DNA of 7,640 nucleotides from a virus (Duplodnaviria > Heunggongvirae > Uroviricota > Caudoviricetes). Where the stretch lies: positions 1 to 7,640 of the IMG/VR virus record IMGVR_UViG_2703718860_000003; one strand, 5' to 3'. Below are positions 1 through 3,000 of the stretch, piece after piece (the first letter of the stretch is position 1; every line of letters starts with the position of its first letter). The position numbers are program-made.

Positions 1-3000
1 GAGCCGGAAGCTGCATCCGTAGCGGAAACCGATGGTAAAGCCTTTCCTCAGCCAGCAGGTGTTGCGTTACCAGTCCAGGAAACGACGACACAGGAAGAAA
101 TGAAAACAGAAATCGTGGAAGACATTGTGAAGTTACAGCCATCGGTCACCGAAACGAAAGCAGATGACCTGATTCTACCATCGCTGCATGTGGCTAACCG
201 CGAGCTGCGCCGGGCAAAAGGTCAGGTTCAGAAGTGGGAGCGAGTCTGTGCCGCTCTGCGGGAGCTGAACAAGTGCCGGGATATTCTCCGGGATATTACC
301 GCCACCAGAGAGCAGCAGTGAGTGGCTGGAAGAAGTGGTGCCGGGCTGAAATCCTGATACTCCGTCAGTGTGCGGGAACTATGAAGGTGAAAAGCATTGG
401 CGCACTTATCGGACGAACTGAAGCGGCAGTGAGAACGAAGGCACGGGAGCTGGGCATCAGTATGATGTTACGTGGTGATTTTCACCAGTCAGCAAAATAT
501 TCTCAGCGTGATATTGAGCTGGCGCGGCAACTGCATCAGAGAGGCATGCAAAGAAGGGAAATTGCCAGAAAATTAGGCATGCCGCTGCGCATAGTGAATA
601 ACTACGTTTATTTCGACAGGAGGGTTCAGGCGTGAGGGTGAGAATTTATATCGCCGGTCCGATGACGGGATATGAAAATTTCAACCGTGAGGCGTTTCAC
701 AAGGCGGAAGAAGCACTGAAACAGGAAGGGCATACCGTATTAAATCCCGCAGTACTTCCGGACGGGCTGACTCAGCCACATTACATGGATATTTGCATGG
801 CGATGATTCGTTGTGTGGATGCGGTTTACATGCTGAAAGGCTGGCAGCGGTCGGCAGGCGCTAAGGCAGAACTGGCACTGGCGGAGAAACTGGGACATGC
901 GGTTATTTTCCAGGAGGCAACCAGTGAGCGAAATTAATTACCAGGAACTACGGCAGGTGAAAGAGAAAGTATAATCCAGAACTGAATAATTAAAATCAGC
1001 ACTGTAAATAAAAATTAATCCTTAACCGGAGGGATTTCTGCACCCTCAGAACATCAGGAGACCGCCTGAAAGGGCGGTAATGAAAAATGACTGAATTAAC
1101 CAAAGAGCAATTAATCAAAGAAGCCAAATTAAAAATAGCGGTTGCAAAATGTTACCCTAATTCAGAGATGGCCTGGGTAGAGGGCGAGCTATTCAAAATT
1201 GCACTGGCATCGCTGGAAGCGGTTCCGGTGGCATGGCTGCATTCAGACAATGGCCTGGGTATTCCAGCAATAACCAGGAGTAAAAACGTTGCTGATAGTT
1301 GGTTATCAAAGGGCTGGTATGTTCAGCCGTTATATGTAGCCCAACCAGTACCGGTGGTGCCGGATGCTCGTCCATCTTTAAATAATGGCATTGTCGGATT
1401 TGATGAAGGCTGGAATGCCTGCCGGGATGCCATGCTTAATGGAGATAAATCATGATTAATCGTATCAAGCTGGAGCACATCCTCGAATATGCCAGGCAGC
1501 AGAAATGTATTGGGCAACTTTGTAAAATTCCACCAGGGGATATGGTTGAGATCATGGAAATAGCTATGCGTCAGGCTGGCAACTTTCAGGTAATTCCTGA
1601 TGACGGTCGCGAACAGTTCGAAGCGCTTATCAGGTTCTATGCGGATGATAAAAACCATGCAACATTGTTGCTTCGTGCTAACGAAGGGATGAATTACCGG
1701 GATCCAAATGTGGATTTGGCGTGGATATTCTGGAAATCCAGTCGAGAGCACATATTGCCTGGAAAAAGCGACAATAATCCAGCATCAGGCGATCAGGTAA
1801 GTGAATTAACAATGTGGGTGAAGCGGTTATCTCATTCCTTAAAAAGCGTTAATAAATCAAGCAAACTACCGGATAAAGCGATGGACTACCTGAAGCGAAA
1901 CGGACTGATAAGCGCGGAGGATATTTTACGATGACCTGGCCTGAGGCATTCGTGGCGGTAGGAATTGCAATGGCGGTGGCGCTGGTGGTGTATTCGATTT
2001 GCCGCTGGGGATGATAAGTGGAATAGTGCGGGGTATTGTGCGCCCCGCTGATTTGATTATTTATTTGGGGAGATAATGTCCTGAAGCGTGGCGATTACTT
2101 CTTCGTCTGTATCTGTATTTCGGAGTTGATATGTAATATCTTCGTTTCTAATAATTTGCATTACAAGCCATTCTCCATTTTTTTCACGTAAGTGAACAGT
2201 ACTGTTTTCCGATATACCATGAACGGTCATTTTTATACCTTTTGTGTTGTGTGAGCGATCAATATAGTCAGAAATGAGACAAGTGAAAGGACATAGAAAA
2301 TAATAGTTTGTTTTTGTAGAATTGCTGCGGGTGCTTGAGGCTATCTGCCTCGGGCATGAACACCAACGGCAGATAGATAAAAGCCCCACCCGACTATAAA
2401 TCGAAGTGAGGCCCCTATATGCTCGTCACATATAGATTGCCTCTTACGGACCGAAAGGTCAAGGAGAAGCAGACTATGAAGCAGCAAAAGGCGATGTTAA
2501 TCGCCCTGATCGTCATCTGTTTAACCGTCATAGTGACGGCACTGGTAACGAGGAAAGACCTCTGCGAGGTACGAATCCGAACCGGCCAGACGGAGGTTGC
2601 TGTCTTCGTAGACTACGAATCTGAGAAGTAAGAGTGACCAGGCGAGGGAGAAATCCCTCGCCACCTCTGATGTGTCAGGCATCCTCAACGCACCCGCACT
2701 TACCCCGTTTCGGCAGACTTTGTTTTTTCCTGGCATTCTGGTTTACAATTCGCGCGTCAGCCTGAACAACTGGCACCTGCTGCGTCACCGGAGAACCCGA
2801 TGGCGCAACATATAAAATCCCACAATTCTGAAGTCGATCCGACCATTAAGCGGGGGCGGCGTTCACACGTATTTAAAACTGACTGGTACCAGCATGACCC
2901 ATGCACTGAAGAACAGGCCGAATGGCTGATCCAGTGTTACCGCAGGCGCGGATATGAGTTTGAGAAAGCCCTCAGCTTCGATCGTCGTCACTGGATAATC

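Follow-up and report, generated by a model that had tools for sequence, protein, structure and literature searches.

Overlapping small genes upstream of Q in a lambdoid Stx2 prophage probably form a mosaic accessory segment and not a single functional module

The window analysed here is a stretch of 7,640 nucleotides (nt) of a caudoviricete virus, positions 1 to 7,640 of the IMG/VR record IMGVR_UViG_2703718860_000003. Between positions 318 and 2014 it carries a run of small genes on the plus strand, several of which are joined by overlapping stop and start codons. We consider it very probable that this run is a hypervariable, nin-like accessory segment in the delayed-early rightward operon of a lambdoid Stx2 prophage, and not one functional module. 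The segment appears to have been put together by recombination from five independently circulating cassettes. These would be a small helix-turn-helix (HTH) DNA-binding protein; DUF4406, a stand-alone, enzyme-like protein of about 100 amino acids (aa) with a nucleoside-deoxyribosyltransferase/Rcl/MilB fold; a 16-codon vestige of an Ead/Ea22-like gene together with an AT-rich intergenic cassette; a 122-aa and a 160-aa member (P4 and P5) of a combinatorially shuffled protein family; and, at the end of the variable region, a conserved membrane peptide of 27 aa. All of the genes would be carried on one polycistronic early transcript after prophage induction, as their position and orientation suggest.

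The distribution of the genes departs from that of a fixed module. Each query was run by megablast against 5,426 complete E. coli genomes, and a genome was counted when at least 80% of the query was matched. By this count, the HTH gene is present in 770 genomes, the DUF4406 gene in 1,187, and the segment with the 27-aa open reading frame (ORF) in 837 (range 837–1,257). The full-length 122-aa gene occurred in 11 genomes and the contiguous 160-aa gene in 4, with fragments in 787 and 559, respectively. Positions 1–2450 were covered to at least 80% in 11 genomes, and the 15 best matches, all 11 among them, are each interrupted. A second sample comprised 80 IMG/VR loci anchored on close DUF4406 relatives, with per-gene denominators of 79 upstream and 61 downstream. 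Here the HTH gene lies 5' of DUF4406 in 43 of 79 loci, whereas 3' of it the 122-aa gene is present in 4 of 61, the C-terminal part of the 160-aa gene in 5 of 61 and the 27-aa ORF in 49 of 61, the last at a distance from DUF4406 that ranges from 498 to 3,367 nt. Directly 3' of DUF4406, 111 loci carry at least 11 different ORF families. The commonest successor is Ead_Ea22 (PF13935, E 8.5e-27; 64 of 111 loci), followed by DUF7167 and DUF4752 proteins. The block of 122-aa, 160-aa and 27-aa genes also occurs without DUF4406 nearby (loci L082 and L083).

The same independence is seen at greater distances. Relatives of DUF4406 occur in Gamma-, Alpha- and Betaproteobacteria, Planctomycetota, Chloroflexota, Actinomycetes, Bacteroidota and Alicyclobacillus, and in the distant taxa their genes sit in prophage early regions beside replication, integrase or lysis genes. 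In 25 diverse loci in which the DUF4406 ORF could be pinned down, we found 24 different upstream and 23 different downstream neighbours. A pairing with an Rv2179c-like (DEDD-type) exonuclease, whose gene overlaps and follows DUF4406 in Edwardsiella prophages (L165–L167, 5001–5901) and on one short contig (L162, 17–768), was considered and set aside, as it accounts for only 2 of the 25. Neither the E. coli genomes nor the IMG/VR or diverse loci show the co-occurrence and conserved order expected of an operon for a stoichiometric complex. The preliminary description of this DNA had proposed tight translational coupling and a fixed stoichiometry; because the genes are found independently of one another across prophages, that proposal is unsupported.

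The overlaps on which the proposal was built are real. The ORFs at 318–635, 632–937, 1087–1455, 1452–1934 and 1931–2014 are present, as are the four tetranucleotides, GTGA at 318–321 and 632–635 and ATGA at 1452–1455 and 1931–1934. The chain is not continuous, as a 149-nt AT-rich gap (938–1086) divides it into two blocks, 318–937 and 1087–2014. Within the upstream gene, a separate Shine-Dalgarno (SD) sequence precedes each of the starts at 632, 1452 and 1931, with pairing energies of −10.8, −6.4 and −9.5 kcal/mol, where the 10th percentile of random positions is −6.3 kcal/mol. At GTG318 the pairing energy is −2.9 kcal/mol, about the random mean, which amounts to no SD. Since it lacks one, the HTH gene alone would need termination–reinitiation; the three other downstream starts would not. 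In phage lambda, 4-nt overlaps occur at 7 of 11 junctions from O to Q and join functionally unrelated genes: a replication protein, an exclusion protein, a recombination mediator, a PAPS-reductase-like protein, a phosphatase and an antiterminator. By this analogy, the overlaps are best read as the usual compact packing of such operons, with no implication of a complex. A fifth GTGA overlap lies outside the segment, at the RusA/Q junction (4492–4495). There, ATG 4504 has the better SD as a start for Q (−5.9 versus −2.7 kcal/mol), and the annotated start in a relative sits similarly far past the RusA stop.

The position of the segment in the early-right operon, between replication genes and Q, follows from the gene order in its closest relative and from the genes downstream in the window. 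The closest complete genome is that of E. coli JNE120393, which is 96.7% identical across 1–2450 in an alignment split into two pieces. It holds the same genes within an Stx2a prophage, after integrase, exonuclease, dicB, cI/cro, DnaT-like, P-like and DUF1627 genes. The DUF1627 gene, whose 3' part occupies 1–321 of the window on the plus strand (PF07789, E 4.5e-31) and which extends beyond the left end, is the last gene of the replication-proximal block and follows the DnaT-like and P-like genes in JNE120393. Downstream of the segment come hok and sok, a 90-aa ORF, DUF968, RusA, a Q-type antiterminator, an N6/N4 DNA methylase, three tRNAs and the start of the Stx A gene. The antiterminator matches the DUF1133/Phage_antitermQ profile and is on the same strand as the segment. 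Pas small RNAs, which figure in a preprint mentioning DUF1627, were considered as a link to this region and rejected, since the preprint places them near the lysis genes instead.

The closest known counterpart is the ren–nin region of lambda (NC_001416, 40,280–43,889), which likewise lies between replication genes and Q on the same strand and is likewise a run of small, mostly dispensable genes with ATGA-type 4-nt overlaps. The gene content differs: searches of Pfam, NCBIfam and PHROGs placed none of the four proteins in a Nin family, and this phage has a DnaT-like/P/DUF1627 replication block and DUF968/RusA in place of NinG. Ren–nin content is mosaic among lambdoid phages.

That the overlapping genes might nevertheless form one translationally coupled module, whose products act together at fixed stoichiometry in nucleotide or DNA modification or in counter-defence, seems to us highly improbable. 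The four overlaps, the HTH start that would need true coupling and the nucleotide-enzyme fold of DUF4406 all speak for such a module. Against them stand the independent assortment of the genes, the splitting of the chain by a 149-nt cassette that is itself mobile, the occurrence of the same overlaps between unrelated lambda genes and the failure of PADLOC to match a defence system with any of the proteins. Very unlikely, too, is a narrower arrangement in which HTH and DUF4406 form a two-gene regulator/enzyme unit, leaving just the right half of the chain unrelated. The two genes are neighbours, joined by this GTGA overlap, in 43 of the 79 DUF4406 loci, yet in the other 36 the HTH gene is absent, in O157:H7 it is followed by genes other than DUF4406, the 25 diverse loci have their 24 different upstream neighbours, and the two genes differ in prevalence (770 versus 1,187 genomes). 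Some points do weigh against a purely mosaic segment. Adjacency in about half of the DUF4406 loci may reflect a loose functional link between HTH and DUF4406. The co-occurrence counts describe the closest relatives among the matches listed and take no account of kinship. The early-right promoter as the source of transcription and the start codons named here are predictions from the sequence. A promoter scan found no sigma-70-like promoter on the plus strand within 1–2014, and site counts in the promoter and terminator scans were not above those of shuffled sequences. No Rfam family matched within 1–2014.

The first cassette, at 318–635 on the plus strand, encodes a small DNA-binding protein with two helix-turn-helix-like segments, 105 aa long if translated from GTG318, where GTGA takes in the DUF1627 stop. 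It matches phrog_323, 'transcriptional regulator' (E 3e-26), while its Pfam scores stay below the cut-offs (HTH_7, 21.4 versus 23.8 bits; HTH_23, 20.5 versus 24.6; Sigma70_r4_2, 20.3 versus 25.7). Matches to TPR proteins in a PDB sequence search were judged to be composition or helical-repeat effects and were discarded. In some relatives, PGAP/RefSeq places the start of this gene at the codon equivalent to position 354, which is CTG here (the stretch at 318–381 corresponds to L001, 9321–9384, and L160, 754–817). Across 25 distinct variants, codons 354–380 show 64 synonymous and 5 non-synonymous differences, indicating strong purifying selection. Codon 354 is CTG in 21 of the 25 variants, and the GTGA at 318 is kept in 21 of 25. 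Because the 354–380 stretch is conserved as coding sequence and codon 354 is mostly CTG, translation would have to start 5' of 354, and GTG318 is the best candidate. The annotated CTG start probably spread from alleles that have ATG at that codon.

The second cassette, at 632–937 on the plus strand, encodes a 101-aa protein with a strong SD (AGGAGG) 9 nt upstream of its start. Its assignment to DUF4406 is firm: PF14359 matches with E 3.4e-37 and 127.2 bits against a cut-off of 22, and residues 4–93 cover profile positions 2–91 of 91. The nucleoside-deoxyribosyltransferase (NDT)-type fold ascribed to it earlier was also recovered. The AlphaFold2 model (predicted local distance difference test score, pLDDT, 90.4) has a three-layer alpha/beta fold, a minimal version of the NDT/Rcl/MilB type, and its best structural matches are enzymes or their closest relatives. 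The match to PF05014 falls under the gathering score (17.2 versus 28.8 bits, E 0.0057). Eight residues, Y6, P10, N18, R19, D53, S74, G76 and E80, are invariant among 29 homologues that are 57–95% identical to the window protein. The top-scoring local alignment to rat Rcl, whose sequence was verified against 2khz, sets QRSAGAKAELALAEKLGHAVI against QPSLGVGYELGRAVALGKPIL, so that S74, G76 and E80 pair with S87, G89 and E93. The counterpart positions in NDT (sequence verified, 157 residues) are D92, G94 and E98. The glutamate at the E98 position is the nucleophile in NDT, and in Rcl a serine in place of the aspartate at the first motif position goes with a 5'-phosphate substrate. In other phages, the DUF4406 domain is fused to dATP/dGTP diphosphohydrolase or MazG-like (MazG/MazZ-type) domains (including phrog_12019), and these pyrophosphatases would yield a monophosphate substrate.

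Given the fold, the invariant Tyr, Asp and Ser-x-Gly-x3-Glu, and the MazG/MazZ-type fusions, DUF4406 would most likely act as Rcl or MilB does, splitting the N-glycosidic bond of a 5'-phosphorylated nucleotide. We propose only tentatively, as somewhat less than an even chance, that it is a nucleoside-5'-monophosphate N-glycosidase acting alone; the main alternative is a non-catalytic binder. The earlier suggestion that DUF4406 may act on nucleotides thus stands as far as the fold is concerned, and the glycosidase role is deduced from fold, invariant residues and fusions. Several observations weigh against the glycosidase reading. The score of the local alignment with Rcl is not significant by itself, being reached by 133 of 500 shuffles; the MAFFT register is unreliable, with the Glu shifted by two positions; and the mapping of catalytic residues comes from motif spacing, fold and secondary-structure register. 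DUF4406 also ends after the last core strand and lacks the C-terminal residues, about 50 of them, that complete the NDT active site. In NDT, Asn123 and the Tyr157 carboxylate are contributed by this C-terminal segment of the adjacent subunit.

Comparison with characterised proteins places DUF4406 at some distance from each. Relative to Rcl/DNPH1, a 2'-deoxynucleoside 5'-phosphate N-hydrolase, and MilB, a cytidine monophosphate (CMP)/hydroxymethyl-CMP hydrolase, it has an identity of only 16–19% and is 50–60 residues shorter, and the residue equivalences among the three come from motif register and not from superposition. Relative to nucleoside 2-deoxyribosyltransferase (PF05014; 1F8X), it has Ser for Asp92 and is without the C-terminal segment. 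DUF1937 (PDB 1t1j, a structural-genomics protein) is 18% identical and adds nothing on mechanism. PDB sequence searches with the four proteins and the DUF4406 profile gave nothing usable. A limited literature search found only passing mentions of DUF4406, in three papers, none giving a function, and nothing tying deoxyribosyltransferase-like proteins of lambdoid prophages to one. Phage NDTs have been proposed to deplete deoxyadenosine (dA) in diaminopurine phages (bioRxiv 10.1101/2025.10.22.683976).

Between DUF4406 and the 122-aa gene lies the third cassette. A 16-codon ORF at 924–974 on the plus strand (MSEINYQELRQVKEKV, then stop) matches an Ead/Ea22-like gene at its start and first ~30 nt and then diverges. 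In 64 of 111 loci, an Ead_Ea22 gene starts at the position equivalent to 924, 13 nt ahead of the final base in the stop codon of DUF4406. This ORF is most likely a recombination vestige of an Ead/Ea22-like gene. The AT-rich intergenic stretch (938–1086, 149 nt, 39% GC) is found beside different genes: in loci L002–L011 a 148-nt copy stands between DUF4406 and a DUF7167 ORF, and in loci L082–L084 positions 973–1090 lie ahead of the 122-aa gene with DUF4406 absent. Its homology ends one base 5' of the ATG at 1087. By these comparisons, the stretch at 938–1086 is mobile in its own right and breaks up the chain. Within it are two small hairpins (~1017–1036 and ~1060–1077); the folding of the 938–1095 spacer is not significant against shuffles (z −1.24), and no Rfam family matches it.

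The 122-aa protein P4 (1087–1455, plus strand) and the 160-aa protein P5 (1452–1934, plus strand) had been described as having no recognisable motifs. This holds for Pfam (E ≤ 0.1) and NCBIfam, which gave no match, but not for PHROGs, where families of unknown function were found: P4 matches phrog_5117 over its full length, and phrog_924, phrog_660 and phrog_24004 match separate parts of P5. A signature of DUF551 (PF04448) or Ead_Ea22 (PF13935) was absent from both proteins in Pfam at E ≤ 0.1. P4 aligns end to end with the first ~120 residues of ~200-aa proteins that bear a C-terminal DUF551 domain, a domain that P4 lacks. PGAP flags a P4 orthologue as 'missing C-terminus'. The name 'valyl-tRNA synthetase', given to P4 and its relatives in NCBI and UniRef, is a mis-annotation that nothing supports.

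P5 consists of an N-terminal module N2 (residues 1–46), a middle module M2 (49–104) and, at the C-terminus, a conserved tail of 47 aa. This tail (~47 residues; G-x-Q-V-x-ELTM-x-VK-x-L ... LPDKAM-x-YL-x-x-NGL ... LR) is the one part that all sequences share when 20 P5 homologues are aligned. In the same alignment, two alternative N-terminal and at least four middle modules occur in varied combinations; members of the family end in either a DUF551 domain or the 47-aa tail. Some members join the P4 N-terminus to the P5 middle and tail. Strain E118 has a single 167-aa protein made of a P4-like N-terminal part and the last 45 residues of P5, and phrog_660 matches P4 and P5 end to end in the same arrangement. 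The module borders bear a repeated short linker, GN(S/P)xV(T/I)P or PVVPD. In the closest genome, P5 has a 233-aa form; the window form is 73 codons (219 nt) shorter, with a middle module missing. The 219-nt breakpoint lies inside two copies of the linker, GGCAAC/CCTCCGGTAAC and GGTAAC/TCTCAGGTAAT (window, 1578–1597; L001, 10581–10600 and 10800–10819), which suggests in-frame module shuffling at linkers. AlphaFold2 gives P5 a low-confidence, all-helical model (pLDDT 47). Read from these alignments, P4 and P5 are shuffled members of a modular family that overlaps with DUF551 and Ea22-type proteins.

Such mosaicism has a precedent. Ea22 proteins of lambda and Stx phages are mosaic, with portable C-terminal domains including DUF551 (PMC10834534), and the Ea22/Ead/DUF551 proteins thus resemble the P4/P5 family in their portable modules and interchangeable C-terminal domains. 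Part of the P4 DNA lies within genes annotated as Ea22 in other phages, and Ead_Ea22 is also the usual successor of DUF4406. P4 and P5 differ in lying in the early-right operon and not in the exo–xis region, and the 47-aa tail and repeated linker are absent from the description in PMC10834534.

It is conceivable, though we find it doubtful, that the 122-aa and 160-aa ORFs are functionless recombinational debris, truncated or internally deleted and kept only because they are recent. PGAP marks the orthologues as incomplete, P4 is without any C-terminal module and P5 without the 73-codon module, the exact forms are rare (11 and 4 of the 5,426 complete genomes), and the P5 model is of low confidence. 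Yet both ORFs are intact and have SDs, the P5 deletion is in frame and falls at a linker that parts modules in other family members, and stand-alone P4-like proteins of 117–122 aa exist in E. fergusonii and elsewhere. Because a 98%-identical 160-aa protein is recorded on 351 contigs, we regard the short form of P5 as an established allele. For DUF4406, the non-catalytic alternative could take the form of a nucleotide-binding 'sponge' or decoy, built on an NDT/TIR-like fold and directed at, for example, TIR- or CBASS-type immune signals. This is improbable, given that Tyr, Asp and Ser-x-Gly-x3-Glu are invariant at the putative counterparts of the NDT/Rcl catalytic positions, that the best structural matches are enzymes or their closest relatives, that the fused pyrophosphatases would supply a monophosphate substrate, and that neither PADLOC nor the limited literature search gave evidence of defence or anti-defence. 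Equally a long shot, based on fold, conservation and position, is the broader idea that DUF4406 acts as an N-glycosidase or binder against nucleotide-based host immunity or reshapes nucleotide pools and that, separately, the 27-aa peptide and the hypervariable protein it overlaps form a two-part system of a variable component and a constant membrane component. The reading we prefer remains that of an accessory segment made of separately circulating cassettes.

The last cassette is a 27-aa hydrophobic ORF (MTWPEAFVAVGIAMAVALVVYSICRWG; 1931–2014, plus strand), whose ATGA overlaps the P5 stop and which has an SD (GGAGG) 10 nt upstream. In the 37 distinct sequences recovered from 95 loci, the frame is preserved; ATG or GTG serves as the start, and TAA, TGA or TAG as a stop that never changes place. 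In-frame 6-nt deletions occur in 3 of the 37 variants; there is only one frameshift and one premature stop, and a divergent variant retains the hydrophobic core. In ~90 of the 95 loci, ATGA or GTGA joins the start of the ORF to the stop codon of the gene before it, with at least four classes of upstream gene end. Homology among relatives stops exactly at its stop codon, beyond which at least five unrelated sequence classes follow. PGAP did not call the ORF in the three genomes examined; some older annotations list a 27-aa 'bacteriophage' or hypothetical protein, and Shigella has it as a fusion with a DUF551 protein. The ORF most likely encodes a true small membrane protein, and it lies at the right-hand border of the variable region.

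To the right of this edge, an insertion at 2015–2320 (33% GC) is absent from most relatives, where the 27-aa ORF is immediately followed by the hok/sok leader. The insertion resembles a small moron placed between these two elements. A terminator-like GC-rich hairpin with a T-rich tail (2028–2048, plus strand) is found only in relatives that have the insertion, and the count of such sites is not above shuffles. The insertion also holds a 57-aa ORF on the minus strand (2230–2057) with no family match. Next to it lies a complete hok/sok type I toxin–antitoxin locus at 2329–2631 (sok, RF01794, 2329–2478, 104.6 bits; Hok, PF01848, E 1e-22), which we take to be the counterpart of hokW–sokW of Sp5. 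Towards the right end of the window, tRNA-Met(cat), tRNA-Arg(tcg) and tRNA-Arg(tct) at 6728–6979 lie just 5' of the gene for the ribosome-inactivating Stx A subunit (7071–7640, start at 7071). Placement of tRNAs directly before stx A is the usual layout of Stx2 phages; only one tRNA is annotated there in the closest complete genome.

We conclude that the region is ordinary phage mosaicism and a further instance of a known pattern. Overlapping stop and start codons in a prophage early operon should therefore not be taken as evidence of a functional module. Three gains in annotation follow. The 122-aa 'valyl-tRNA synthetase' should be seen as the N-terminal part of the ~200-aa DUF551 proteins, and a conserved, mostly unannotated 27-aa membrane ORF is present in ~840–1,260 of the 5,426 complete E. 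coli genomes. DUF4406 itself is widespread, occurring in the prophages of more than one-fifth of complete E. coli genomes and in several phyla, as an uncharacterised protein with an enzyme-like conserved site.

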